A stretch of DNA of 64,000 bases. Source: Octopus vulgaris. Taxonomy: Eukaryota. The notes under the pieces are model-generated. The model did no database searches and was not told the DNA's origin. It saw only the letters and a program-made list of their open reading frames with translations. The stretch is taken from contig OX597826.1 in the NCBI GenBank assembly GCA_951406725.2, forward strand, positions 2,914,001-2,978,000, written 5' to 3'. A program made the translations under genes and the position numbers. Shown piece after piece: positions 4,801 to 58,479 of this stretch; positions within the stretch are counted from its first letter, which is position 1; the number at the start of each line of letters is the position of its first letter.

Positions 4801-5154
4801 GGGTGAGACAGCAGTGCATGCCATCAGTGTGATACTGGGGTAAAATATACGAAGCCCGACATACCCATCATTACTACACGACTTATAAGTTTACACCAAA
4901 GATATGCATTACAACCATTTGTGGGCAATATGGTAATCTCATATCAAGATACACACCACATGACCTTGCAGGTGGGACCCACTTAAAATTTTCTTCCGGT
5001 TGAGTAGTCCATCCTGCTCAAACACCCAGAATAAGTGTCGTTTAAGGATGTTGAACGAAACTCCCATGTTACCAGAGGTCAATGATTCAAAGTCCAAAGT
5101 ATTCCCCTCAATCCATGGCTATAATGCTCCCCCCACTATTTCTGCTCGTGATCA
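4801..5154 (-). mobile_element. TAA-associated element C, 5'-truncated copy
   Basis: Homologous to 35307-35660. Its 3' end abuts the (TTA)n tract at 4680-4800. Confidence 0.85.
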
Positions 5155-10704: not shown

Positions 10705-11460
10705 GGTGGCTAGCTGGCAGAAACGTTAGCACGCCGGGCGTAGTGCTTCGCGTTATTTCTTCTGCTGCTTCGTTCTGAGTTCAAATTCCACCGAGGTCGA
10801 CTTTGCCTTTCATCCTTTCGGGGTCGATAAATTAAGCACCACGTTACGCATTGTGGTCGATGTAATCGACTTAATCCATTTGTCAGTCCTTGTTTGTCCC
10901 TTCTGTGTTTAGCCCCTTGTGAGTAATAAAGAAATAGGTATTTCGGCTGCTACTAGGTTCTGAGTTCAAATTCCGCCGAGGTCAACTTTGCCTTTCATCC
11001 TTTCGGATCGATTAAATAAGTACCAGTTACGCACTGGAGTCGATGTAATCGACTTAATCTGTTTGTCTGTCCTTGTTTGTCCTCTCTCTGTTTAGCCCCT
11101 TGTGGGTAGTAAAAAGATAGGTATTTCGTTTGCCGTTACGTTCTGAGTTCAAATTCCGCGAGGTCGACTTTGCCTTTCATCCTTTCGGGTTCGATAAATT
11201 AAGTACCAGTTACGCACTTGGGTCGATGTAATCGACTTAATCCGTTTGTCTAACCTAGTTTGTCCCCTCTATATTTAGCCCCTTGTTTGCAATAAAGAAA
11301 TAAGAAACGCTAGCACGCCAGCGAAATGCATAGCGCTATTTCATCTGTCTCTACGGTCTGAGTTCAAATTGCGCCGAGGTCGACTTTGCCTGTCATCTCT
11401 TTGGGTGTCGATAAATTAAGTACCAGTTGCGTACTGGACCGTGTGCCAAGAGTAGAAAAG
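10705..11460 (+). mobile_element. SINE family B, tandem multimer of four ~185-215 bp units
   Basis: Head GCTGGCAGAAACGTTAGCACGCCGGGCG. The marker GTTCTGAGTTCAAATT..CCGAGGTC.ACTTTGCC recurs at 10772, 10957, 11140 and 11355. Confidence 0.9.
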
Positions 11461-13301: not shown

Positions 13302-13313
13302 TAATAATAATAA
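13076..13313. repeat. (TAA)n microsatellite
   Basis: Visible run. Confidence 0.95.
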
Positions 13314-13727
13314 GACGCAGGAGTGGCTGTGTGGTAAGTAGCTTGCTTACGAACCACATGGTTCCAGGTTCAGACCCAGTGCGTGGCACCTTGGGCAAGT
13401 GTCTTGTACTATAGTCGCGGGCCGACCAATGCCTTGTGAGTGGATTTGGTAGACGGAAACTGAAAGAAGCCCGTCGTATATATATGTATATATCCATATA
13501 TGTATGTGTGTGATTGTGTGTCAGTGTTTGTCCCTCCAACATGGAAACCGATAGTGGTGTGTTTACGTCCCCGTAATATAGCGGTTCGGCAAAAGAGAAA
13601 CTGATAGATTAAGTACTAGGCTTACAAAGAATAAGTCCTGAGGTCGATTTGCTCGACTAAAGGCGGTGCTCCTGCACAGCCGCAGTCAAATGACTAAAAC
13701 AAGTAAAAGAGTAAACGAGTAAAGAGT
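13314..13727 (+). mobile_element. SINE family A
   Basis: Homologous to 898-1305, with a GTAAAAGA-type repeated tail. Lies between TAA tracts. Confidence 0.9.
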
Positions 13728-13915: not shown

Positions 13916-14503
13916 TATATTCACAGACATGACAGAGTTGGAACCTACATACATTGGAAGCTATGCCAACATTATGGAATAAAAACAGAAAAAAGATGGT
14001 ATAGGCACACACCAGAAAAGGTCACAGAAATCGAGAAAGCAACCATACTCTGGGATATGCCGATACACACAGATAGAGAAATTAAGGCCAACAGACCAGA
14101 TATAGTTGTCAGAGATCATGAAGAAAAAAATGCTTTCTAATTGATGTATCAATACCGGCAGATGACAACGTGTCTCTAAAAGAAATGGAGAAACTCTCAA
14201 AACACAAAGACCTGGAAATAGAGGTAACTAGAATGTGGAATCTGAAAACAGAAACAATTCCTATCATAGTAGGTGCATTAGGCATGATAAAAAAATATTC
14301 AGACAAATACATAACAAAAACACCAGGACTTACAAACACATATAACATACAGAAAATGGCACTACTAGGCACTGCACACATCCTACGCAGAACACTTTCC
14401 ATACAATAACCATCAGAGCATCACAACAAATCACAGCACATACCCAAGGCACACAGAGCTGCGCTCGGTAGTGAAGTGAAAGCACGCTATAAAAATAAAA
14501 CTA

Positions 14504-14507
<4 letters not shown>
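13916..14507 (+). mobile_element. R4/Dong-type LINE family 1, 5'-truncated (RLE domain plus 3' UTR)
   Basis: Translates as YIHRHDRVGTYIHWKLCQHYGI..WYRHTPEKV..ILWDMPIHTDREIKANRPDIVV, then a frameshift in an A-run, then CFLIDVSIPADDNVSLKEMEKLSKHKDL..PIIVGALG..LLGTAHILRRTLSIQ* (stop at 14409). TAA tracts on both sides. Confidence 0.93.
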
Positions 14508-14642: not shown

Positions 14643-15106
14643 GTACATTGTTTTGTCTTGGTATAAAAGATGGGCTACAGCAAATATTCTGCTCAATACC
14701 ACAGATTTGCTTGTCAGTTGTTTGACATTAACCAGTTGAGCATGTCCCTTAGTGGCTGACAATATGTGCATCTCTGATTATGAGCAGGAGTAGTGGGGGA
14801 GTATCATAGCCATGTGTTGAGAGGAATTCTTTGGGTTTGAATAATTCACCTCTGGAAACATGGGTGGTTCTTTCAACATCCTTAAACAACCCTTATTCAG
14901 GAACCTTTTGAGCGGGATGGGCTACTCAACCTAAAGAAAATTCTAACTGGGCCCCACCTGCAAGGTCATGTGCTGTTTATCTTGATATGAGATCATCATG
15001 TCGCGCACATATGGTTGTGATGCATGTGCCTGGTGTACCCTTATCAGACGGGCTTCGTATATTTTACCCCAGTGCCACTTTGATGGCATGAACTGCTCTT
15101 TCACTC
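14643..15106 (+). mobile_element. TAA-associated element C
   Basis: Homologous to 39633-40123, with a small internal deletion near 15052. Flanked by (TAA)n. Confidence 0.88.
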
Positions 15107-18095: not shown

Positions 18096-18228
18096 GAAAG
18101 ATGGAATAAATATCCTCCGTGTTTTGATCTACACGGAAACCACACTGACAATCAAGTGATGTTGCACGCTTACCTGACTGTGACTAAAGATAGCACAATA
18201 TTGCAAGCCCTTATTTATCTTCCGTATA

Positions 18229-18605
18229 GGCGCAAGAGTGGCTGTGTGGTAAGTAGCTTGCTTACCAACCACATGGTTCCGGGTTCAGTCCCACTGCGTT
18301 GCATTTTGGGCAAGTGTCTTCTACTGTAGCCTCGTCTCGACCAAAGTCTTGTGAATGGATTAGGTAGACGGAAACTGAAAGAAGTTCTTTGTATTAGTAT
18401 ATGCATATAACTGTGTGTCTCCCATTGTCCTACCACAATCCCTTTACAAACGATGTTGATATGTTTATGTCCCCGTAGACAAGTGGTTCGGCAAAAGACA
18501 CCGATACAATAAGTACTAGGCTTGCAAATTATAAGTCCGGAGGTCCCTTTGTTCAACTAAAGTTGGTGCTCCAACCTGACCGCAGTCCAATGACTGAAAC
18601 AAGCA
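18229..18605 (+). mobile_element. SINE family A
   Basis: Homologous to 898-1305. Confidence 0.9.
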
Positions 18606-18616
18606 TAATAATAAAA

Positions 18617-18662
<46 letters not shown>

Positions 18663-18771: not shown

Positions 18772-20496
18772 TACACACACACATAGCGTGCACGAGGCAA
18801 TTAAGTCAGAAAATTAAATCCAGAACTAGAAGCCGGAATGAAACGTCATCACGCAGAACCATGAATTTAAAGAAAAGAAAAAAACACGATCATTTAAAAG
18901 CATTTGGGTAAGTGATAGTCCCGAGGACGTCAGGGAAGTGAACTGGAGCAAGTGTCAGCTAACACTTTCTCTCTGATGATGTTACTGACCGCACGAACCA
19001 CGGCAATTGTCAACAAATATGCTCCACTTTAAGTCCTCTCTATACCTACATCTCCTTTAGTTGGCCGTTAAAATCTAGAGAGCTTTAAAGATTCTTCAAT
19101 ACTTCCTAGGCTTATGCGAAATGGGGAAAGGTCACGCTAGAAACCGCACAGTCGCGTGTATGACAACATTATGTTTCACTGATGTTGTGGCTTCCATTTT
19201 AGTTGAGGTTTTGAAACCGGGAGAAGACGAATGTGATGACATACGATGGCTCCCCAACTCCATGCACTCAGAAACGAAATCAATACTCAAAAGAGAATTA
19301 CTGTAATTCTCAAAATATCACGTTACATTTCATGCAGAATGTTTCGAAACACTCTTTGAAGTAAACATCTCTAAATGGTAGAGAATTTTAAAATCTCCAG
19401 ATTAGTTTTGCAATATCTTCTATTACGCTCATGACACTAGGCAACACTACTATACAGAAAAATCTGTCCATATCAAAAATCAAAGGATAATATTCACCCA
19501 GTTGTATAATAAACCTGCTGGAGAACATTGATATTAGTTGAATATTTTAATTCAATCAATTCATACATTGTTTTAATAGAATGGGATATTTATGTGGAAT
19601 GCATACTGTCGCGATGTGCTCTGCAAAAATAATCGGTCACACAGGCTTACATGATTCCCTATATGTGGCTGTGTAGTGAAGAAGCTCGCATTTTTTGTCA
19701 CTGTGATATAGCGGTTCGGCAAAAGGGTCCAATATATTTGGTGCCAGACATTTTAAAATATACCTGTGTCGATTTGTTTAATTAAGCAATTCAAGGCGGT
19801 GCCCTAGTTACCTGCAATCAAACAACGGTAAGAAGTAAAATGTTAAAGATAAAACCGGACACCCACTAATACACACGTGCCTACACATTTATAGAAAAGT
19901 TCCCTAAATGTGAAAGTTCATTTTATATTTCTATATTTCGGGTTTATGTAAGAAATAGAAAATTGTGTCGGGCTGATTATCCTCCCCCTGCGTATGTTGG
20001 TTATTGTAACAAGTGCTGAATCGTAGAGTTAACTATAATTTATCTGCTTCAAGGATTTCTTCTTCTGGTGTTCATATTTCGTTGCAGTATATCCACGGTG
20101 ACGGCTTTCTAAGATTTGGTAAATTTAGCTAAGCCGAAGCATTCTTGTAGGTGGATATTTCTTATTGTATTAGGGATGCGATATTTCAAGTAGCGTCTTA
20201 TGAAATTTATTCGGTAACGGATAATTGCTCAATATTCTGATAGTTTGAATTGACTTTGCGGTAAGCATCAAAGCGACAGAGCATAACCTTAGAAGTTGGA
20301 AGATCAAGAAAGATATTCGAAGATTTCCGCATTCATAAACGGAAACCATCGATCAACAATCGAGAAACAATGTGACCAGGCAAACTGACTATTATAACAA
20401 TACCAGTCTTCACCTGTCGCAATCCACACCGTCTCCTATATATCTAAACAAATGATCCCAGTTCGACGCCATCTCTTGACCACTGTGTGAAACTGG

Positions 20497-21197
20497 TACT
20501 TATATTATTGACCCCGAATGGATGAAAGTCAAAGTCGATGTAGGCGAAATTTGAACACAGAACATAAAGACGAACGAAATGCATTTAAGTATTTCACACG
20601 ACGTGCTAACGATTCGTTCGTATTCTAGGCACAAGGCCCGAAGTTTTGGGGGAAGGAGCCAGTCGATTAGATTCACTCCAGTACGCAACTGGTATTTAAT
20701 TTGTCGACTGAGAAAGCGTAAAAGGCAGAGTCGACCTCGGCGGAATCTGAACGTGGAACGTAAAGACCGACGAATTACCTATTTCTTTACTACCCACAAG
20801 GAGCTAAACACATCCAGGACAAACAAGGGCAAACGAACCGATTAAGCTGATTACATCGACCCCAGTGCGTAACTGTTACTTAATTTATCGACCCCAAAAG
20901 GATGAAAGGCAAAGTCAACCTCAGCGGAATTTTTTATCTCACAACATAACACCAGACGAAATACCTATTTCTTTACTACCCGCAAGGGGCTAAGCACAGA
21001 TAGGACAAACAAGGACAAACAAACGGATTAAGTCGTTGATATCGACCCCATTGCGTAACTGGTACTTATTTAATCAACCCTGAAAGGATGACAGGCAAAG
21101 TCGACCTCGGCGGAATTTGAACTCACAACGTAATGACAGACGAAATACTGCAAAGCATTTCGCCCGGCGTGCTAACGATTCTGCCAGTTCGCCGCCG
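20497..21197 (-). mobile_element. SINE family B: a three-unit multimer plus an adjacent short copy
   Basis: Reverse complement of the 10705-11460 units. Head at 21197 (GGCGGCGAACTGGCAGAATCGTTAGCACGCC), second head near 20615. Confidence 0.88.
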
Positions 21198-31325: not shown

Positions 31326-31408
31326 AGCAGCAACAGCAGCACCACCGGCAGCAGCAACAGCATTAGTAACAGCAGCAGCAACATCTTTAGGAATTGATAA
31401 TTGTCCTA

Positions 31409-31778
31409 TTTTACTCTTTTACTTGTTTCAGTCATTGAGTGCGGCCATGCTGGAGCACCGCCTTTAGTCAAGCAAATCGCCCAGAACTTTGGAAGCCTAG
31501 AACTTATTCTATCGGTCGCTTTTGCCGAACCGCTAAGTTACGGGGACGTAAACAAACCTGCATCGCTTGTCAAGCTATGTTGGGTCGACAAACACAGACA
31601 CACAAAGATATACACACACATTTGGTACACAGTTTCCTTCTACAAATTCAACTCAGAAGGCTATGGTCAGCCCGAGGCTATAGTAGAAGACATCTGTCCA
31701 AGGTGTCACGCAATTGTACTGAACCCGGAACCATGTGGTTGATAACCACGCTACTTACCACACAGCCACTCCTACGCC
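31409..31778 (-). mobile_element. SINE family A
   Basis: Reverse complement of family A. Confidence 0.88.
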
Positions 31779-32445
31779 TTTTTTCCTCTATAATATTACA
31801 GTTATGATCTTCACCATGATCGGCATCATGGTCAAATATGATGGTGATGACGACGACGAGGATGATGAGGATGTTGATGATCAACAAGAACAACAACAAC
31901 GACGACACCAACAAAACCGCAACCATCTCCATAGACATCATTGACATGAACTCCGCCATGTCGATCGTTTTATTCCCCACCGACAATACATCCAGTGCCA
32001 CCACCACATTTCTTTCGTTACAATTCCTCATGAATATCGAAAATGTCATCAACCGCTTTGTTTTCCTTTCTGTCATCATCGTCTTTAGTCATCAGGAACT
32101 TCAATATCCACAACATATGTGTTATCCTTAGCATTAACACCAATGACATTGTCATTCTCATCGCTATGATCAGCATCATCATCATCACCATCTCCACCAC
32201 CACCACCACTACCATCATCATCATCATCCTCATCATCATTGTCGTTGTCGTCGTCATCATGATCACCGCCAGCACCGCCGCCATAAGAGCCAATTTCATT
32301 AGATCCATAATTAACACAATTCTTAGAAAACCAATTCAAATGATATTCTTCAACACCACTTTCATTCAAAACGATAACACTACTACTAATACTACTACTA
32401 CTGCTACTACTACTACTAATATCACCACCACTACTGCTGCTGCTA

Positions 32446-35306: not shown

Positions 35307-35855
35307 GCGTGAGAGAGCAGCGCATGCCATCAAAGTGACACTGGGGTAAAATATACAAAGCACAGTATACCCATCATGACTACCAGTCTGATAAGGTTAT
35401 TCCAGGCACATGCATCACAACCATGTGTGCGCAACATAGTGACCTCATATCAAGATAAACAGCGCATCACCTTGCAAGTGGGGCCCAGTTAGAATTTTCT
35501 TCTGGTCGAATATACTCTTTCTGCTCAAAAGCTCCCTGAATAAGGACTGTTTAAATATGTTGAACGAAACACCCGTGTTTCCAAAGGGGTTTTATCGAAG
35601 CCCCAAGGAATTCTCCTGAACACATGGCTATATTGCTTCCCCACTACTTCGGCTCCTGATCAAAGAAGCACATATTGTCAACCACTAACGGACATGCTTT
35701 AACTACTTAAGGTCAAACAACTGACAAGCAAATCTGTTGTATTGAACATAATATTTGCTGCAGCCCATTGTTTATACCAAGACAAAACAATATACATGAC
35801 AACACTTTCAATCAGTTAAGATCAGAAGCCGTGAGAGCCACTGCCTGGTACTGGT
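35307..35855 (-). mobile_element. TAA-associated element C, near full length
   Basis: Reverse complement of 39569-40123. (TTA)n on both sides. Confidence 0.9.
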
Positions 35856-36325: not shown

Positions 36326-39227
36326 CGACTTTCTGCCGTTTGTTTAGTTTTCTCTTTGTTATCTTGAAATAAATAATATTAAAAATATTACTATGTCTTA
36401 TACTGATGCTTAATATTAAATTTATATCTGGCATTGTGTTAAAATCGGAAACCAAGATTTAATGTACTTTTCTATATCTCTGTTGTGTTTTCTCATTATG
36501 TCTACAAATGTGCCTGAATGCAAAATAAATATGCATACATTTTAAACAATAATTTTATGTCTGAGAGCTAGAAGAATTTAACAATTTCAAAATCAAATTT
36601 TAACATATTAATTTTATTATAACATAAGAGAATTTAATACTTTCGCAGTTATCTTTTTTGACGTTTGGTCAACGTCAAGCAGATAACTGGAAATGCAATA
36701 TCGTCTCAACTAATGTTGAATTTATGTTAAACTGCAACGTCTAACTCCTATATTATAATTCGTTTTCCAAACACATTCACACACGTTGCATTCTGAGGTT
36801 GAATCAACAGCCATGTGTGGACTTTAAATAAACGCTTGAACATGGTTTATTTAATATTGAATGTCAGCTAGCATTACTACAATGATTAAACATTGAATCA
36901 CCGTTAACTCGCAACGTTGAATAAACACCGGATTATGACATATTTCGAAAATAAAGATGGACGTTCAATTCTGATATTAAATCAACATGTGATGTTGATC
37001 TTGAATCAATATTGAAACACGTTTCATTTTATATGAAAACTGTTTGTATGATACGTTTTAAGCATTTTTCTAGCTTTAATATTTAATTATTAATGTGAAG
37101 CCAAACATAGTTACAGTTCAAGATCTTCAGTTTCATAAACATTGAAACATCCGTAATTACCTCAGAAATACAGGCAGCTTTTCAGAGACATATTTTCTCA
37201 CAGATTCAATATCGCCTTTATATGATGGTATTTCAAAACAACGTGTGACGAACAAGCAAACAAAACGATGTTCAAAAATCCACTTTACGTATCGGATATT
37301 TGGTTTATGAACTTATTGATCTCATCGAAACTTATATGAATACCTCATTACTTAATATGAAAATAAGCAACACAATACCAATCATTACCACAATCTCATT
37401 AAGATCTTATACGTAGTCTAGCAATAGTTTTGTAGAAGTAAATTATATTACCACTTTTAGTTTGATTATTTCATACATACCATATTTACTAAGTAAATAA
37501 TATACAACGGATAATTTGCATAAAAGTTGAAATATAGTTTATTTAATTATATACGAGCACTTTTGATAGTCAATAAAATTCAGATGCAGAATTCTGTACC
37601 TCGCCTCTTTAACTTATTTCTGTTTCACCATTCTTGAATACTTTAACTAAGCATGATAACACAAACATTATTCAGTGCATGTAAATAACTGAAATGCTTT
37701 ATAAAGGGTCGTCAAACCTTCAATTTAAAAATTAATTTTAAAATCTTTTGGTAATTTCAACCAGTTTAAATTCATTCGAAACTTTCTCACGCAAGAGTAA
37801 TATTTTATTTTATGGAACTTAATCAAAAGATGTAATATCAATATTTCCAGCTTAATTATATTATACTTTTCCGGTATTTGAACATGGAACCATGTTTATG
37901 GTAAATGAAGCCTGTGAATTTAGCCGTCATTTTGATAGACTGTACTTGATAGACTCTCAGTTACGTTTATCACTTCAGACTAACTATTTATTTAATAATG
38001 AAATATGATATAAACACACTAACTTATATTTTATAAACTAAATACCAAAGATAAATTTAATGCACTCAAAATAATACATAATATTTAATAATTATGTATG
38101 AGAAAATGTTATTTAATATATAATATTCGCTGACTTGTGTTGATATTTTCTGAAGTAAAATAATTAACTTGTAGCGTATGATCTTCAAAGGCATTGTAAA
38201 GTATATATTTAAGTAAATTATGTGTATATCCATAACATGTTATTATCTTCTGAATACATAATGTAGATTCAGCATTGATTTATTGACAAGTAGTTAACTA
38301 ATGCATATTTATTGACAATATTACCAGACAGACGCAAATTTGAATTAACTAAATCATTCATTAAATTTTGAGGGTGGGATATTCGTCATACCATTATGTA
38401 GTACATATTATATATGGCATTATTTAAATTTGCTTGAAAGCACGTAGCGATGGTTTTGTTAGTTAGGAACAAAGAGTTAATACGAAATGCGGATTAGAAT
38501 AATGCATCAATGCAGCACTATAAATGAGAAATTATTCAAGAATGCGAATATGTTAGATAAAGAAGTAGAGACAAGAGAATTACAACAAACACAAATGCAC
38601 AAATCCTTTGTTATTAACAAACTCTACAGTACACCGCATTTAAACGAGAGAAAAGTTTCTGACTGAATATTTCAGACGCATTAAATTAAATATGTTTATC
38701 ACGTTTAATTGCAAACACATGCATAATTGGCCTAAATACTCAATATGTCCCAATAATATGTAATAGCTCTGCAATTGTAAAATGGACGTTCAATAAACTA
38801 GCAATAAAATACTTTGAGCGTTTTGTATGAGCCTATAGATATTAAGGAAAACCATTAATCAGTGACGATGATTATGATTAAGATGGAGATGATGATGGTG
38901 AGGAGGAGAAGGGGTTGATGTTAATATTAGTGAGCTCTATGTTAGATAGAAGAAATCAATTTTAATTGGAGATATTGAACCTAGTTCTCCGTATGTATTT
39001 TATTTTATCAGCTCGGAATCGATAATGAAAATAAGTTCCCCCACAGCCAAGAGTTAGACATTTATAGGGTGGGGATCTAGTCAATTACACCGACGCTATT
39101 ACTTATTTCATCGACACAGAACGCAAATTCGAAAGAAATGACGTTAATCATTTTTCCAAGCGCAGTAAGTATTCTACTATCTTGCCAATTGCTGATAATA
39201 AAACTGAAATAATAATAATAATAATAG

Positions 39228-39286
<59 letters not shown>

Positions 39287-39393
39287 TTAATAATAATAGT
39301 AATAGTAATAGTAATAATAATAATGATAATAATAATAATAGTAATATTAATAATAATAATAATAATAATAACAACAACAACAACAGCAACAAC

Positions 39394-39566
<173 letters not shown>

Positions 39567-39568
39567 TA

Positions 39569-40123
39569 CACTGATGGAGTACCAGACAGTGGCACTTGTG
39601 GTTCTGATCTTAACTGATTAGAAGTGTTATCATTTACATTGTTTTGTCTTGGTATAAAAGATGGGCTACAGCAAATATTCTTCTCAATACAACAGATTTG
39701 CTTGCCAGCTGTTTGACCTTAATCAATTGAGCATGTCCCTTAGTGGCTGATAATATTTACATCTCTGATCACGAGCAGAAGTAGTGGGGAAGCATCATAG
39801 CCATGTGTTGAGAGGAATTCTTTGGGGTTTGGATAATTCACCTTTAGAAACACGGGTGTTTCGTTCAACATCCTTAAAAACCCACCCTTATTCAGGGACC
39901 TTTTGAGCGGGATGGGCTACTCGACCAAAAGAAAATTCTAACTGGGCCCAACCGCCAAGGCCATGCGCGGTTGATCATGATATGAGATCACAATGTCGCG
40001 CACATACGGTTGTGATGCATGTGTCTGGTGTACCCTTATCAGACGGGTAGTCATGACGGCTATACTGGGCTTCGTATATTTTACCCCAGTGTCACTTTGA
40101 TGACATGTTCTGCTCCCTCACGC
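39569..40123 (+). mobile_element. TAA-associated element C, longest copy
   Basis: ~555 bp with no convincing ORF. Ends ..CCCCAGTGTCACTTTGATGACATGTTCTGCTCCCTCACGC followed by (AAT)n. Confidence 0.9.
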
Positions 40124-40154
40124 AATAATAATAATACTAATAATAATAATACTG

Positions 40155-40233
<79 letters not shown>

Positions 40234-40245
40234 TAATAATCATAA

Positions 40246-41090
40246 TATGTGGTTTGTGATTCGTATGATACCCCTCACATATATCCTACGGAAAAAGTGC
40301 ATTGGGGTACATCTTGGAAAGTGGAGTAAGATTAAATCATCTGTTATATATGGATGACTTAAAAGTATTTGGGAAAACCGAATTTGAAATAAATGGCCAA
40401 GTTTCAATAGTGGAGTTATTCAGTAATTACATCGGAATGGAATTCGGGTTTAAACAGTGTGGTATGTTTATAATCGAAAGTTGCAAATTAATGTTGTCTG
40501 CTGTGTTAGAGCTACCCAACTGCGAGAAAATCAAGGATATTGAGACTAATATTTGGTGATTTTAGAATACGACAAAATTAAGTAAAGGAAAATGATGGAA
40601 AGATTTAGACGAGAATATCTCAGAAGGCACCAAATTAATTATGGGAAGTAGACTTGACGGAAAATGCAAGAACAGGGTATTGAATGCGAGATGGCGCAGG
40701 TGTTGTTAGGTAGACAAAGATGGAGTTTAAGGAAATGGACAGGAAAATCAGAAAATCGAGGACAATTAACAAGGAACGACACCCACCAAAGCGATACTGA
40801 GGGTCCGTATGTGCCTAGGAACAGGGGAAGAAGAGACCTCACAGGATGAATGATCTGTGTTGTCAACGAGTAGAATAGTCTGGGATGGTACATCAAACAG
40901 CAGAGTGAATCCTAGCTTGTCGCTGTTAGAATTAACAATACAATACCTGCCAAAAATGTGATGCATCCACAAACATTTAAGAAACAAGATGAAGTTGAAA
41001 GAGTAAACAATTGCATGGGCAATATCTCAGAAATCGAATGGAAAGACAAGATTGACACTTTGAGATGGCTAAAAAAATGTGATCTGAAAG
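40246..41090 (+). pseudogene. R4/Dong-type LINE RT fragment, family-3-like, decayed
   Basis: MIPLTYIL, LNHLLYMDDLKVFGK..IGMEFGFKQCG, HQSDTEGPYVPRNRGRRDL, LHGQY, WLKKCDLK. Confidence 0.88.
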
Positions 41091-41662
41091 ACCAAAAGCA
41101 ATAAAGTCAGTTTATTGATTGACATGAGCATACTCTGTGATCGGCAAAAGAATTCATTAAGCTTAGAAAATATTAAGATTTGCTAATCGAAATCGAAAAA
41201 AAATGTGGCATCGCAACACGGTTACTATGTCAGTGATAGTTGAAGATCTTGGATTGATCAAAAATTGAGCTGAAAATTATTTTAGAATGATCGTTGGCTT
41301 ACCATCCGTACAGCAAGCGCAAAAGATTCTCTCACCTTGCACATCAAACGTACTGAGAAGAGCATTGTGAATCGTATTTCCGTTTTTCTAATTTTTCTCC
41401 TTCCTTTCATTTTTGTATTTTTTCATGTTTTACACTTATATTTCTTTGGTTTTCCTTTTTTTCTTTTTCAATTCACTTTTTCATTTTTTTTCTCATCTTT
41501 TCCCTTTTTCTCTCTGCATTTCTCCCACTTTTTCTCTATCAGATGACTTCGTAACTGAACAATCTAGTGTATTTATACTAATCGCCTACCAATGTATACG
41601 GTGAGTTTCTCTTCCCTACGTGTCAGGAAGACACTCGGCAAGAAATGGAAGAAGAACTGAAA
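41085..41662 (+). pseudogene. R4/Dong-type LINE family 2, 3' end, decayed
   Basis: Nucleotide match to 48497-48970, including the UTR GCCTACCAATGTATAC..GGAAGACACTCGGCAAGAAATGGAAG. Confidence 0.85.
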
Positions 41663-41794: not shown

Positions 41795-42153
41795 AATACC
41801 GGCAGATGACAACGTGTCTCTAAAAGAAATGGAGAAACTCTCAAAATACAAAGATCTGGAAATAGAGGTAACTAGAATGTGGAATCTGAAAACAGAAACA
41901 ATTCCTATCATAGTAGGTGCATTAGGCATGATAAAAAAATATTCAGACAAATACATAACAAAAACACCAGGACTTACAAACACATATAACATACAGAAAA
42001 TTGCACTACTAGGCACTGCACACATCCTACGCAGAACACTTTCCATACAATAACCATCAGAGCATCACAACAAATCACAGCACATACCCAAGGCACACAG
42101 AGCTGCGCTCGGTAGTGAAGTGAAAGCACGCTATAAAAATAAAAATAAAACTA

Positions 42154-42157
<4 letters not shown>
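41795..42157 (+). mobile_element. R4/Dong-type LINE family 1, 5'-truncated
   Basis: Nearly identical to 14151-14507. Stop at 42053. TAA tracts on both sides. Confidence 0.93.
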
Positions 42158-46931: not shown

Positions 46932-48980
46932 GGATTGACTACAAAAAGGCCTTCGACAGTATACCGCATCCATGGATCTTGAGATCGCTGGACATCTTCA
47001 AAATTTCCCCTGTGATTTCAAACTTCCTGAAGCACAATATGTCGTTGTGGAATACGAATATCCAATTATACCACTCTAATGGAGTACTTGCCTCAGAAAA
47101 TATAAACATCAACTGTGGAATTTTTCAAGGTGACTCACTTTCACCTTTAATATTCTGCATAGCCCTAATACCCCTTATAAGTGAATTAAACAGAACAGGG
47201 TATGGGTATAAAATTGCCAATAAAAAAATAAGCCATCTATTTTATATGGATGACTTAAAACTTTATGGTAAAGACAATAATGAACTTGAAGGCCTATTGC
47301 GCACCGTGAAAGCACTCAGCGATGACATCGGGATGGAGTTTGGACTTAAGAAGTGTGCCAAGGTCACTTTCCAGAAAGGGAAAGTGAAGACCACAAATTC
47401 AGTCGTGTTAGATGTTGACACAGTCATAAGAGAGCTTGAGCAAGAACAAACATACAAATATTTAGGGATAAATGAAGGCTCTGGTATTCAGCATGCAAGC
47501 ATGAAAGAGAAAATCAGGAAGGAATGTTATAGGAGAGTTCGTGCAGTCCTGAAATCTGAACTAAATGCACGTAACAAGGTGTTAGTTATAAATTCCTTAG
47601 CAGTTCCAGTTGTTACTTATAGCTACAATGTGTTGAACTGGAATATGAGTGAAGTAAAGAATATAGATAGAAAAATACGCAAGCTGCTGAGTTGTAATAG
47701 GATGCACCACCCAAAGGCAGACGTAGATCGCCTTTACCTTCCCAGAGCCCAAGGAGGTCGAGGCCTGATCCAATTTGAACTAGCTTACAAAACAACCACA
47801 ATTGGACTGGCCAAATATCTCGAAATATCGAATGACTGGATGCTAAAGCTTGTGGAAAATCACGAGAGACGAAAGAAGCTTCATTCTATCATAAAGGAAA
47901 GCAAAAAGTTGCTATTGATCTCGTGCAGGATACCCAAACTGAACAACCCGAGGGAAGTACGGCAACTATTGTTGCAAAGAAGGTGAAAATGATGGCAATG
48001 AAAAAAGCGCACGAGCAATAGGCTGATAGGTGGGAGGAGAAACCTCTGCACGGCAAATATGTGACCCGCAGCAAACAAGCTGATGTTGACCAGAAGCAAA
48101 CCCATCAGTGGCTACGGAGCTCAGGGCTAAAAGCAGAGAGCGAAGGTTTCATCCTGGCTGCTCAAGATCAAAGCCTATTAACCCGGAACTACCAGGCCAA
48201 TGTGATGAAAAATGGAGCAGACCCAAAATGCCGATTCTGCAACGACATGATTGAAACAGTGGACCACCTAATCTCTGGATGTAAAGTCTTAGCACCAGTG
48301 GAGTATAAATTAAGACATGACAGAGTTGGCCAATATCTCCACTGGCTAATAAGTCGGCATTACAATATCAAAACTGCCGACAAGTGGTATAATCACCACC
48401 CTGAGGCTGTAACTCAAGGAGAAAATGTAACCATTCTGTGGGACTTTCCAGTACATACAGACCGAACCATCAAGGCCAATAAACCAGATATTGTTGTGAA
48501 AGACCAAAACAATAAAGTTTGTATTTTGATCGACATGAGCATCCCCTGTGATCATAATATCTCAGCGAAAGAGTTTGACAAGCTCAGAAAATATAAAGAC
48601 CTACTCATTGAAATTGAGAAAATGTGACACCTCAAGGCGGTTACAATACCAGTGATCGTAGGAGCACTAGGAATGATCAAGAAGGGAACCGAAAATTATA
48701 TGAGAATGATCCCTGGCTTACCATCCCTGCAAGAAGTGAAAAAGATTGTCTTAACTGGTACATCACACGTATTGAGAACAGCATTGTCGATGTGAGAACT
48801 GTTGCTGCTCATGTATTTTAATTTAACTTTAAAAAAAAAATTAAAAAATAGAAAAAAAATGAACGAACTACTGAGTTTGGTTTAATGGCCTACCAATGTA
48901 TACTATGAGTTTCTTTGCCCTAGGAGTCGGGAAGACACTCGGCAAGAAATGGAAGCAAATTTGAAAGAAGAAAAAAAAAG
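46931..48980 (+). mobile_element. R4/Dong-type LINE family 2, 5'-truncated: RT, CCHC finger, restriction-like endonuclease and 3' UTR
   Basis: IDYKKAFDSIPH, GIFQGDSLSP, HLFYMDDLK, YKYLGI, GGRGL, CRFC..ETVDHLISGC, RHD, KPDIVV..IDMSIP..KYKDL, PVIVGALG. Lesions: frameshift near 47908, TAG at 48019, TGA at 48625. Natural stop at 48795. TAA on both sides. Confidence 0.96.
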
Positions 48981-49004
48981 TAATAATAATAATAATAATA
49001 ATGT

Positions 49005-49495
49005 TAAAGTGGTACGAGCATACACCCGAAGGCATCATCGAAATGGATAATGCAAAAATCCTATGGGATTTTATGATTTAGGGTTACCATGAGATAGAGA
49101 ATAAGAAACCAGACATAGTGTAATTGAGAAAGAAAGCACGCGATGCTGGATATAGATATAGCATGCCCATCTGACATTAGATTATGCGATAAAGAAGAAA
49201 AATATCAAAAGATATTACAGGTTTGGAATGTTAAGCAGTTGGGTCACTGCAAAAGGTGGTAGAATTATCAATAAGTGTCGGAGCCTAAGGAACAGTGAGT
49301 AAAAATCATTGTGAGGCACTTGTAAAAAATAGGGGCTGCAATAAGGGTGAAGCACTTGCAGAAAACAACACTGCTTGGAACCACTCTAATACTCCGGATG
49401 GCACTCAAACAATAAGGCGTGTTACCTTACTTTACTTGTAGTGAACAACTGACACCGTAGTACATCTCCAGGGCTTGAAACTGTGCAAAGGCAAT
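49005..49495 (+). pseudogene. R4/Dong-type LINE RLE domain plus 3' UTR, older family
   Basis: KWYEHTPEGII, AKILWDFMI*GYHEIENKKPDIV, IDIACP, HLQKTTLLGTTLILR. Starts after TAA and ends at AATAATATAATAA. Confidence 0.82.
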
Positions 49496-49810: not shown

Positions 49811-50713
49811 ACTATAGGCCCATAAGAAATTCACATACAACAAGAGATTCGACAAGGCTGGGGCATACAGGTAGTGAATCTGGAATATACAGAAACCATT
49901 AGTGTACTTCGAAATAGAGAAGCACCGGAAGAAATTATCCCAGAACTAGCTAAAAATTATTACAAGGGTTTCAAATTTTAGCAAAACTTCAGCATTTTTT
50001 TTCGCAATGGAATAATAGATGACATCGAACCTAATTTACAGCTGGTACTTACATCACCGTTCCCAAAAAGATGAAACGCGAAGTCGGTGTTTGTATTCTG
50101 TCCCCAAAGACAAATTTGTTATAGTGGATTTGAAACGAGATTCTGAAATGATATAAATAAATATACATTTGTATTTACATCGATTCTACTAACCACATTC
50201 CTCTAAAAACTATTAATATTAAAGTATATATGAATAAATATTAGAAAAACTATTTTAAATACTAGCTGATAAAATCTCATGGATTTTATTGAAGAGACAT
50301 CAATCTATTTCACCGCTGTATTATAGGTCAATATATTCGATTTAAACCAATCAGTATTTTCGTGTTTGATCATATTTGTGGGATTATCTTCCGTTGATTA
50401 ATTCGCAAAATGATTGATTTACATTTTAGTACTGTTTATAGAATTGAAATGTGTATAATTTTTTCCAAAGTAAATGAGAAAAACAAAACATATTTTCTCC
50501 ATCACAAGAAGAAATGATTATTATTTATTATCCGTTTCTCAATGTGCACATCAATCATTATTCATCTATCACACACACACATACACACACACACACACAC
50601 ACATATGTATATATATATATATGCGCGTGTATGTGTTGGGTATCTGTGTATAATAATTGGGATATGAATGTTCAAACAGCACAACCAATAACTGGCATTT
50701 AAACATGTAGGTA

Positions 50714-50899
50714 TACTCTTTTACTTGTTTCAGTCATTTCACTGTGGCCATACTGGAGCACCCAGGGCCTATTCTTTGTAAATCTAGTACTTATTCTATC
50801 GGTCTCTTTTGCTGAACCGCTAACTTACGGGAACTTAAACATCGGTTGTCAAGCGATGTTGGGGGGACAATCACAGACGCACAAACATATACATAGACT

Positions 50900-50934
<35 letters not shown>

Positions 50935-51082
50935 GACGGGCTTCTTTCAGTTTCCATCTACCAAATCCACACACAGAGCTTTGGTTGACCCGAGGCTACA
51001 GGAGAAGACAGTAGCCTCAGACACTGAACCCGGAACCATGTGATTGATAAGCAAGCTACTTACCACACAGCCACTCCTACGC
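50714..51082 (-). mobile_element. SINE family A
   Basis: Reverse complement of family A with internal deletions. Confidence 0.88.
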
Positions 51083-51792
51083 TTAAGACTGTATGGAGAA
51101 GACAGGCGTTATAATTCACACATAATTTTTTTTAATGTGCAGTTTCATATTTTCCTGAATACACGTAAAAAATGAAACAAAGGAAGCAAGATTGGTGATA
51201 AACTAACTGGATATATCCTACATTCATTTCCTTTTGAATATATATAAAACGTACAATACATGAGAAAATTACTTCGTATTATCATTAGAGAAATGCTACT
51301 CATATACTTAGTATTATTTATGGATTAATGTCATTGCTACAAGCAAAATATAAGCAAACAACCGATAGTTATTAGAGCATCCTGTCATTAGGTTTTCAGT
51401 TTACATACGTAAAATTGTACGTGTTTGTCATTATGTGCATGTTTGTGAATAGGTTTGGTTCTGCGTTTGGCGTCAATCTATTCCTATACGAACTCAGGTT
51501 TTAAAGATTTGTACAAGCATTTTGGTGTGGCGTCTCCTCTTCAGGTACCGAGATAGAACAGAGCACCACAGCGAGCAACCAGTCATTCAATGATGACGGG
51601 AAGAACATAAGTGTGACACACACAAACACACTCATACACACACGCACACGCATTCAGACCACGGAACATCACAAAACTAAACACTAATATCTAAGCTTAA
51701 TAATATTGTACGTTTAGAATTTTACAAAAAAACGGGGGAAATCCAATAATCCAGCATCAATGTAAGTAATCGCCACAACCCTTGAATTCATA

Positions 51793-56394: not shown

Positions 56395-56802
56395 TATAGG
56401 CACAATGACTAATTTTTTTTTCGGAGAGAGGACAGTCGATTATATCAACTCCTGTGCCTAACTGGCACTTTTTCCATCGACCAAAAAAGTTTCAAAGGCA
56501 CAGTCGACTACGGTGCAATTTGAATTTAGAACGTAACGGCAGAGGAAATACCTATTTCCTTACTACCCACAAGGGACTAAACACAGGGATGAGAAACAAG
56601 GACAGACAAACGGATTAAGTCGATTATATCGACCCCAGTGCGTAACTGGTACTTATTTAATCGAACCCGAAAGGATGAAAGGCAAAGTCGATTCGGCAGA
56701 ACTTGAACTCAGAACGTAGCAGCAGACGAAATACCTATTTATTTACTACCCACAAGAGGCTAAACAAGAGGCTAAGGCGTGGTAGCGATTCTTCGAGCTC
56801 GA

Positions 56803-57380: not shown

Positions 57381-57856
57381 CATGTGTGAACCAATAGCTT
57401 CCCTCCTGTGCTGAAAAAACAAAGACACACACACACACACACACACATGCACACACACATACACACACACGCACACATACACACACACAAGCATATATAT
57501 TTACAAAAACTTGTGATGTCTGAATTCGAGTTTAAAACATAATGACAGAGCTCATAGATTAATAAAACCAACAAATAAAAAAGGACATTACATACTATAT
57601 CTGTTGAGGATGTCCCCCCACCCTTTGGATTATTAGCATCCCCTTTAAACAATGATGTAAAATACTCTATCCTTTTCTAAAGCTGGTAACCTCAAGGAAT
57701 ATTCCATGTTAATATTAGGTTAGTAAAGGCGGAGATCAAGCGGAATCGTTAGCAAAACAGGTAAAAATTGTTGGAGGTATTTCGTCCATGTTTTACGTAC
57801 TGACTACAAACTCTGTCGAGGTGAAGGTTGCCTCTCATGCTTTCGGTGTCGATAAA

Positions 57857-58270
57857 GACGTAGGAGTGGTTGTGTGGTAATTAGCTTGCTTATGAACCAC
57901 ATGGTTCCGGGTTCGGTCCCACTGCGCGACAACTAGGGCAAGCGTCTTCTACTATAGCCTCGGGCCGACCAAAGTCTTGTGAGTGGATTTGGTAGACAGA
58001 AACTGAAAGAATCCCATCGCATATATGTATACATATATATGTTTGTGTGTGTGTATGTTTACGTGTGTCTGTTTGTCCCTCCAACATCGCTTGACAACCG
58101 ATGCTGCTGTGTTTACGTCCCCGTAACTTAGCGGTTCGGCAAAAGAGAGCGATGGAATAAGTACTAGGCTTCCAAAGAATAATTCCTGCGGTCGATTTGT
58201 TCGACTAAAGGCAGTGCTCCAGCATGGCCACAGTCAAATGACTGAAGCAAGTAAAAGAGTAAAAGAGTAA
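57857..58270 (+). mobile_element. SINE family A directly after a decayed family B copy (57726-57856)
   Basis: Full head-to-tail match to family A. Tail GTAAAAGAGTAAAAGAGTAAA. Confidence 0.9.
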
Positions 58271-58479
58271 AGTAAGTATGGAAGCAATATTGGTTTAGTA
58301 AATCTACATACCATGCAGTTACAAAACTTACCTGCCAAAGTATCTGGTCGTTGTCTAGCTGTGAACAGTAATTATATCCAACGGTTTTTTCTGTTTGTTA
58401 GTAAAAGACGCCATCATAGATAATCACTTTTCGTTATTTTGCTCATGAAACACTCATATTTTTTTTAATTATCAGATAC

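Follow-up and report, generated by a model that had tools for sequence, protein, structure and literature searches.

Among the described retroposons, the EhSINEs of Entamoeba (EhSINE1 has a length near 550 bp) and the R2 SIDEs of Drosophila are closest to the octopus element considered here, element C. The Entamoeba elements EhSINE1, EhSINE2 and EdSINE1/R4-N1_ED, with EhLINE1/2 and R4-1_ED as partners, are described as non-coding partners of RLE LINEs, with an unknown promoter, without any known small-RNA head and with a body that bears no relation to the LINE (PMC2996970, PMC3747384), all of which applies equally to element C. R2 SIDEs are, like element C, protein-free users of the machinery and target of an RLE LINE; they constitute internal deletions that keep the 5' HDV-like ribozyme and the 3' sequence of the parent (PMC3414825). 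According to the sources of ORF-less bipartite elements given by Kojima in 2018, only RTE, Ingi, Vingi and R2 contribute to them (PMC5786205), and among the entries consulted in a table of 58 SINE/LINE pairs from 2013, every R4-type pair comes from Entamoeba (PMC3747384).

Two properties of RLE LINEs are relevant to the comparison. R2Bm protein binds a core of about 40 nt with two stems and a key junction A, and this R2 tag (P1-J1/2-P2 of the R2Bm 3' UTR) suffices for target-primed reverse transcription of cargo RNA (PMC10499050). Dong elements target TAA repeats (PMC3812793; PMC3774820), and silkmoth Dong is reported to cut itself from a TAA co-transcript by an HDV-like ribozyme at its 5' junction (PMC3774820). 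The octopus annotation includes 51 Dong-R4 families (PMC13282606). A literature search, with most subscription journals outside its range, found element C undescribed and returned neither a Dong-dependent SINE from an animal nor a structure for the 3' UTR of Dong. The octopus repeat library of Bonar et al. (2026) contains 893 SINE families that are recently active but unclassified, together with 1,102 unknown families (PMC13282606), so element C probably exists as an unclassified consensus in that library on Zenodo.

Element C in the window

Element C occurs four times in the window, i.e., the whole 64-kb stretch of Octopus vulgaris DNA that was analysed. The full-length copy (39565-40123, + strand; family length 557 nt) diverges by 8.1% at non-CpG positions from the family majority sequence; it is preceded by its target site, an (AAT)n tract that also includes stretches of (AAC)n and (GAT)n (39208-39568, +), and followed by the (AAT)n tail or downstream target tract (40124-40247, +). 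A second, near-full-length copy (35307-35855, −; 11% divergence) has microsatellite on both sides, and its positions 35307-35852 (−) match positions 10-555 of the query 39569-40123 at 84%. The copy at 14643-15106 (+) is 5'-truncated at about family position 71, carries a 22-nt deletion through the Dong-type motif discussed below and immediately follows, within one tract, the 3' end of a Dong family B copy (14644-15104 (+) matches query 67-553, 86%). The last, an old copy at 4801-5154 (−), is truncated at about family position 203 (4803-5154 (−) matches query 198-553, 79%), and its 5' side consists of unique sequence without a microsatellite. The common 3' end given in the preliminary description is found in all four copies, each ending in CTC.CAC.C and then (AAT)n, and alignment to 39569-40123 likewise bears out the division into two full-length and two 5'-truncated copies.

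Several other repeats occupy the window or similar tracts. A full-length U1 snRNA retrocopy (2178-2338, −; 77 bits), the only Rfam match at the gathering score in the whole window, has an (ATT)n tail of a polarity opposite to that of Dong and element C, and this tail suggests that a second enzyme uses the same tracts. A very abundant tRNA-type SINE, also with an (ATT)n tail and opposite to Dong (loci L105, L138 and L023; window 10754-11438, 20478-21196 and 56418-56770), is arranged in the window as tandem arrays with a unit of 183-186 bp. Six copies of another repeat of about 400 bp, with an (AAAGAGT)n-like end, lie at 896-1304, 13309-13724, 18225-18621, 31406-31783, 50711-51085 and 57853-58272. 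Elsewhere, a tRNA-headed element is followed by (AAT)n and then by a segment with a hammerhead-like core recognised by eye, often in inverted pairs (L061:730-830, L072, L116 and L193); it looks like a Penelope-related non-autonomous element.

Family size, ends and age

In the genome (2.80 Gb, 227 contigs), exact words from the 5' and 3' ends of element C are counted 6,407 times (22-mer) and 12,674 times (25-mer), respectively, while the reversed controls give 0. Eleven BLAST hits, counted as nine insertions, in 67 evenly chosen 10-kb stretches (670 kb) correspond to an estimate of about 38,000 copies (95% interval 17,000-71,000). The 30 best genomic matches are 540-555 bp long, have the same two ends and display a mean pairwise identity of 96%. 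Across copies, divergence from the majority sequence ranges from 0.7 to 13% and linked subfamily variants are present, which indicates that the element has been active for long and until recently. A profile of element C over about 1.04 Mb detected nothing beyond pieces of element C.

A pile-up of ends of the kind that the preliminary description called for, over 30 loci anchored on the 3' word, gives a 3' end at position 556-557 in all of them and variable 5' ends. Full-length copies make up 38 of the 87 3'-intact copies not selected on their 5' end. Truncation points concentrate at positions 60-105 (14 of 61, p 0.001), within the 3' arm of a predicted 5' hairpin; they may reflect stalling at the structure, and microhomology with the target could also explain them. 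In several copies the 5' end is tandemly repeated, with every unit starting again from the first base, which points to an RNA with a discrete 5' end; the same kind of 5'-end tandem duplication is seen in Dong B. At locus L205 (G000:C1, about 30.148 Mb), a full copy is preceded by an array in which the first 68 nt of element C recur at least 11 times in tandem, always from the first base. A microsatellite lies upstream of 135 of the 152 5'-intact copies, and the other 17 mostly show 5' duplications or degenerate repeats. Longer copies running into an ORF would have shared unique upstream sequence; none recurs among these 17, or among the 152 as a whole. A few copies (L176/L133, L196 and L147) are flanked by (GAA)n and not by (TAA)n, in either mutated tracts or a secondary target.

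Target, tail polarity and relation to Dong

Element C has the target and polarity of the Dong LINE. Tails of 193 3'-intact copies are (AAT)n in 185 cases and (ATT)n in none, and the repeat-tailed 3' ends of Dong type number 248, with AAT in 209 and ATT in five. For 187 copies of element C, the nearest Dong ORF was sought within 600 bp; it shares the strand of the copy in 76 cases, lies on the opposite strand in two and is absent in 109. In a control tRNA SINE from the same tracts, (ATT)n tails prevail (53 of 86, with two (AAT)n and 31 other tails) and the orientation is opposite to Dong in 17 of 20 cases. As many loci were chosen for containing element C or Dong, these tail and strand counts are not genome-wide rates. 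Polarity is family-specific. When read by eye, the clusters of AAT tails are seen to belong to element C, to Dong families, to a single tRNA-headed element and to an (ATT)-polarity SINE, of which they represent the 5' side; among 433 AAT flanks (clusters of at least three; 180 singletons left out), no AAT-tailed cluster of a non-Dong LINE was recognised.

The window itself contains a candidate for the enzyme donor family, Dong family A, in the form of a 5'-truncated copy (46934-48981, +) with the RT, a CCHC finger, the RLE region and a 3' UTR whose two-stem motif lies at 48912-48948. The family of this copy has intact frames of 1,235 codons. The full Dong ORF matches R2-type proteins alone in the PDB, and the name Dong/R4 is used here because of these relatives, the TAA target and the octopus annotations cited (PMC13282606, PMC9115989, PMC8967140). 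Dong family B, represented by a 3' end at 41799-42156 (+) and a second copy at 14125-14506, carries a variant of the motif that the models miss; it is the youngest Dong neighbour of element C as well as the commonest. Age profiles pick out no single donor family, with the Dong A row mixing families. In one Dong A locus (L065), the 5' UTR upstream of the ORF exceeds 1 kb and contains several microsatellites in addition to an internal duplication, about 330 bp long.

A predicted two-stem motif in the 3' ends of Dong and element C

Although their 3' UTRs seem unrelated at the sequence level, five Dong families align on one fold once these UTRs are cut to 38-44 nt. A first stem of 6 bp is connected through a 6-nt junction, in which one A is almost invariant, to a second stem of 5 bp; a GG loop and a linker of 4 nt complete the fold. 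Nine of the 11 pairs change on both sides among the five families (covariation score 0.61, compared with at most 0.22 in slid controls); the sequences were picked by motif patterns and are related, so that the shuffle counts for covariation are not probabilities. Further instances in the window lie in the 3' UTR of another Dong copy (41608-41644, +) and in that of Dong family D (49419-49455, +). This covarying fold of the Dong 3' UTR is new here. It resembles the R2 tag in its size of about 40 nt, its two stems and its conserved junction A (PMC10499050), and differs from it in being compact and contiguous with a GG loop; the putative role of the Dong motif is deduced from covariation only.

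In element C, a predicted counterpart occupies family positions 462-499 (40028-40065, +). Its first stem has 6 bp, its junction has 6 nt including the conserved A, its second stem has 5 bp and one bulged A, and its loop is GG; the base after the junction A is T in element C and G in most Dong sequences. The motif ends 58 nt before the tail, compared with 30-59 nt in Dong families A, Cd, D and H, and the best site in element C is on the sense strand. Pairing between the junction CC and the loop GG is possible in both element C and Dong, the loop side being a side that never varies. The preliminary description had proposed a possible pseudoknot at 40023-40049, on this motif; its first stem does not hold for the family, since it needs a T present in just two of the 30 best copies, and a different helix is predicted there. 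It had also considered the 3' end unlike the Dong UTRs. As regards sequence this stands, since the best match of Dong 3' UTRs to element C scores 22 points (reached in 1/200 shuffles) in a comparison with 27 clusters that represent the Dong-like 3' ends of 1.89 Mb, setting aside one cluster that contains a copy of element C; as regards predicted shape it does not, owing to the common two-stem fold. When nine loci of Dong A and seven of Dong B are searched with element C by BLAST, only embedded copies of element C are recovered, and its 5' part has no match in the upstream regions of Dong A and Dong B.

The resemblance was evaluated with a Dong-only profile trained on eight Dong sequences, the form of which was chosen after the likeness had been noticed by eye. 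Under this profile the site at position 462 of element C receives 16.1 bits, a value reached by 3/1,499 shuffles, and the next site receives 2.5; Dong groups kept out of the training obtain 12.1-23.3. In 670 kb of random genome, 13 sites reach at least 16.1, namely ten Dong UTRs and three copies of element C; one of the Dong families is outside the training set, and rare Dong families may lie outside a sample of this size. Five settings that permit a bulge let 0-5/800 shuffles reach the score of element C, and the match is lost if the bulge is forbidden. By pairs alone (152/800 shuffles) or by loops alone (787/800) the match is not significant. The covariance models are divided. Infernal model R1 (14 sequences, with flanks) does not report the motif in element C at E up to 10, whereas model R2 (seven Dong sequences, core only, no element C) aligns end to end at 40028-40065, with 14.8 bits and E 0.0025 within one intact copy and with 10.8 bits and E 4 in the window, which is not significant; it gives nine hits on copies of element C among 13 loci (9.2-14.8 bits). 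Dong B scores −2.4 under the Dong-only profile and is missed by all models, and it fits the fold by eye with two irregularities. Dong-like families of the L005, L007, L027 and L145 types do not fit the motif model either and may use variants. The model is therefore incomplete, as it misses Dong B and several other Dong UTRs.

Three further comparisons carry little weight: profiles of the Dong D and H UTRs hit neither element C nor any shuffle and are uninformative; a hand-written descriptor that matches element C (12/400 shuffles) was set aside, because it missed most Dong UTRs and was written after element C had been seen; and an antisense 10-mer common to element C and the Dong B UTR is not significant (71/300). 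Given the split Infernal result and the failure of all models on Dong B, the predicted motif in element C is graded as likely, and no higher, to be a docking tag.

Coding content, fold and transcription

Element C encodes nothing, unlike Dong. The absence of an ORF and of A and B boxes claimed in the preliminary description agrees with the majority sequence, in which none of the six frames has a stop-free stretch longer than about 60 codons and a regular-expression search finds neither box. A six-frame Pfam scan of element C returns nothing credible, ARAGORN finds no tRNA head, Rfam has no match to a young copy even with E values of up to 10 admitted (on three Dong loci it gives two chance hits only), and the element contains no polyA signal. 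RNase P/MRP, 7SK and telomerase RNA, considered as sources, were dropped in view of the Rfam result. As in canonical SINEs, the element is short and non-coding and has a fixed 3' end with a repeat tail as well as 5' truncations; as opposed to canonical Pol III SINEs, it has no small-RNA head (tRNA, 5S, 7SL or snRNA) and no A/B boxes, and T4 runs lie inside it at positions 79, 335 and 513. Pol III transcription of element C is unlikely.

The TATA-like word TATAAAAG reported earlier is present (39653-39660, +) and conserved, yet it cannot set the +1 start because it lies about 90 nt inside the element. The predicted 5' hairpin domain (39568-39666, +; family positions about 4-103; z −2.35, 3/200 shuffles) is a candidate for whatever fixes the 5' end of the RNA. 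Neither strand of element C includes a hammerhead core (CUGANGA..GAAA), and no HDV-like ribozyme is found in it with strict or relaxed descriptors or with Rfam; the same descriptors also find none in octopus Dong B, so that this search has no positive control. Of 24 rows of contigs from sequencing runs, 14 contain half or more of the words of element C, under four organism labels; being assembled, these contigs are uninformative on RNA starts and levels, and the RNA rows, with their small shares of the words, carry no evidence of transcription.

The sense strand folds better than its shuffles (z −3.5, 0/100), in particular at positions 219-557 (z −5.2), as does a single copy (z −2.97), while the antisense strand does not (z +0.6). 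The 3' end is predicted to pair back to about position 220. Among subfamily variants, no selection on the predicted fold is detected, with eight of 28 breaking a pair where 9.0 are expected (p 0.38), and for this reason most of the fold is to be regarded as a prediction.

A MITE sharing 170 bp with element C

Recurrent loose ends in three sequencing runs led to a 490-bp MITE (loci L206-L255, e.g., L214:1330-1812), which has CACTG...CAGTG ends, TIRs of about 120 bp, an apparent TWA target duplication and a divergence of about 8%. A 23-mer of the MITE has 896 matches with up to one mismatch. Its interior corresponds to positions 104-273 of element C (39667-39836, +), with 96.5% identity between the majority sequences, and is present in 29 of 30 right-TIR loci; the MITE also holds an 85-bp unique part with a splice-acceptor-like tract, and nothing credible emerges from its six-frame Pfam scan. 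The earlier statement that element C has no TIR is thus correct for element C itself, 170 bp of whose body lie also within a separate TIR element. Classification of element C as a MITE is rejected on account of its repeat tail and 5' truncations, the TIRs belonging to that separate element. The ages of the two overlap. Capture of the segment by the MITE from element C is the likelier direction, because both CpGs of the segment are intact in element C and decayed in the MITE founder, the listed copies of element C lack the MITE allele set, and copies of element C are as old or older.

Mobilization of element C and alternative explanations

Element C is best explained, with a probability of roughly three in four, as a protein-free (TAA)n retroposon copied in trans by a Dong (R4-clade RLE) protein that grips the predicted two-stem fold near its 3' end. 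This reading, close to the structured non-coding RNA mobilized by a Dong/R4 enzyme that had been proposed at the outset, is supported since the target, tail polarity, strand agreement, 5' truncations and 5' tandem duplications match those of Dong and a Dong-type 3' motif is present; mobilization in trans is what these features together suggest. A transcript of element C with a discrete 5' end would bind the Dong protein via the two-stem motif, the Dong endonuclease would nick the (ATT)n strand, and target-primed reverse transcription would begin at the 3' end of element C. Incomplete copying would then produce 5' truncations, and jumps at the template end would produce 5' tandem duplications. 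The 5' end of the RNA might arise from an internal Pol II start or, as in silkmoth Dong, from self-cleavage of a read-through (TAA)n co-transcript. Element C appears to work like an EhSINE or a SIDE, yet shares no sequence with the Dong ends sampled. EhSINE1 has about 70 bp in common with its LINE (PMC2996970), whereas element C has a predicted fold only in common with Dong; EhSINE1 is represented by 393 copies at dispersed T-rich sites with TSDs, and element C by tens of thousands in (TAA)n of an animal host. Unlike SIDEs, element C matches neither the Dong A and Dong B ends nor other sampled Dong 3' ends in sequence, and no HDV-like fold is found in it.

Two origins that retain the Dong enzyme deserve consideration. 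Element C might be a SIDE derived from a Dong family that is extinct or lies outside the sample, a possibility to be taken seriously even if it is the less probable side of a roughly two-to-one judgement. Somewhat more doubtful is that it represents an independently assembled parasite, which would have acquired the Dong fold by structural mimicry and would owe its precise 5' end to an undescribed promoter or a self-cleaving RNA within the first 103 nt.

Relaxed recognition by Dong, through pairing of the (AAU)n tail with the nicked strand or through RNA abundance, would make the likeness of the two-stem motifs a matter of chance. The failure of model R1, the need for a bulge and the Dong UTRs that are off-model favour this explanation to some extent. 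It is nevertheless improbable: the best site of element C has a Dong-like strand and distance to the tail, only Dong UTRs and element C exceed the threshold in 670 kb, and many unrelated (AAT)n-tailed RNAs would be expected, whereas the AAT clusters seen are few.

Another enzyme, either a Penelope-like element or a LINE of the I/Nimb clade with TAA tails, is a still less probable driver. An inverted 5' duplication in one copy (L162) would be compatible with it; moreover, the I element is listed as ending in TAA repeats (PMC3747384), bivalve SINEs are reported to use Nimb partners (PMC11481361), and Penelope and RTE families are annotated as active in octopus (PMC13282606). Against a Penelope-type retrozyme stand the lack of a hammerhead core on either strand and the arrangement of tandem copies, which are separated by (AAT)n and not joined as pseudo-LTRs. 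The microsatellite on both sides of element C requires target specificity, and the 433 AAT flanks include no recognised cluster of a non-Dong LINE with such a tail.

It is very improbable that the copies are retrocopies of a cellular non-coding RNA transcribed from a few source genes with an external promoter. The discrete 5' end, the strong sense-strand fold, the pairing of the 3' end to about position 220 and the failure to find an internal promoter would all suit such an RNA, but Rfam offers no match even at E up to 10, linked subfamily variants and ages of 0.7-13% point to successive source elements, the 152 copies share no unique flanks, and the fold shows no selection. That element C is merely the long 3' UTR of a LINE can practically be dismissed: two of 187 3'-intact copies (L154 and L284) directly abut a Dong B ORF fragment with no intervening repeat, but these junctions differ (element C positions 242 and 521) and are explained by deletions or template switches, and the 5' end is fixed with microsatellite upstream.

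Implications

Published partners of RLE LINEs are rare, being represented by the Entamoeba SINEs and the Drosophila R2 SIDEs. With respect to recognition, the 37-nt motif is a candidate for how R4-clade proteins pick their RNA, in parallel to the R2 tag, and if the structural-mimicry reading is true, it would constitute a portable 'Dong tag' directing any RNA into (TAA)n tracts. BLAST-based searches for SINE-LINE partners can miss pairs that are linked by shape. For the octopus, a Dong/R4 partner present in tens of thousands of recent copies would add an animal case to the list of such elements and would account for about half a percent of the genome.
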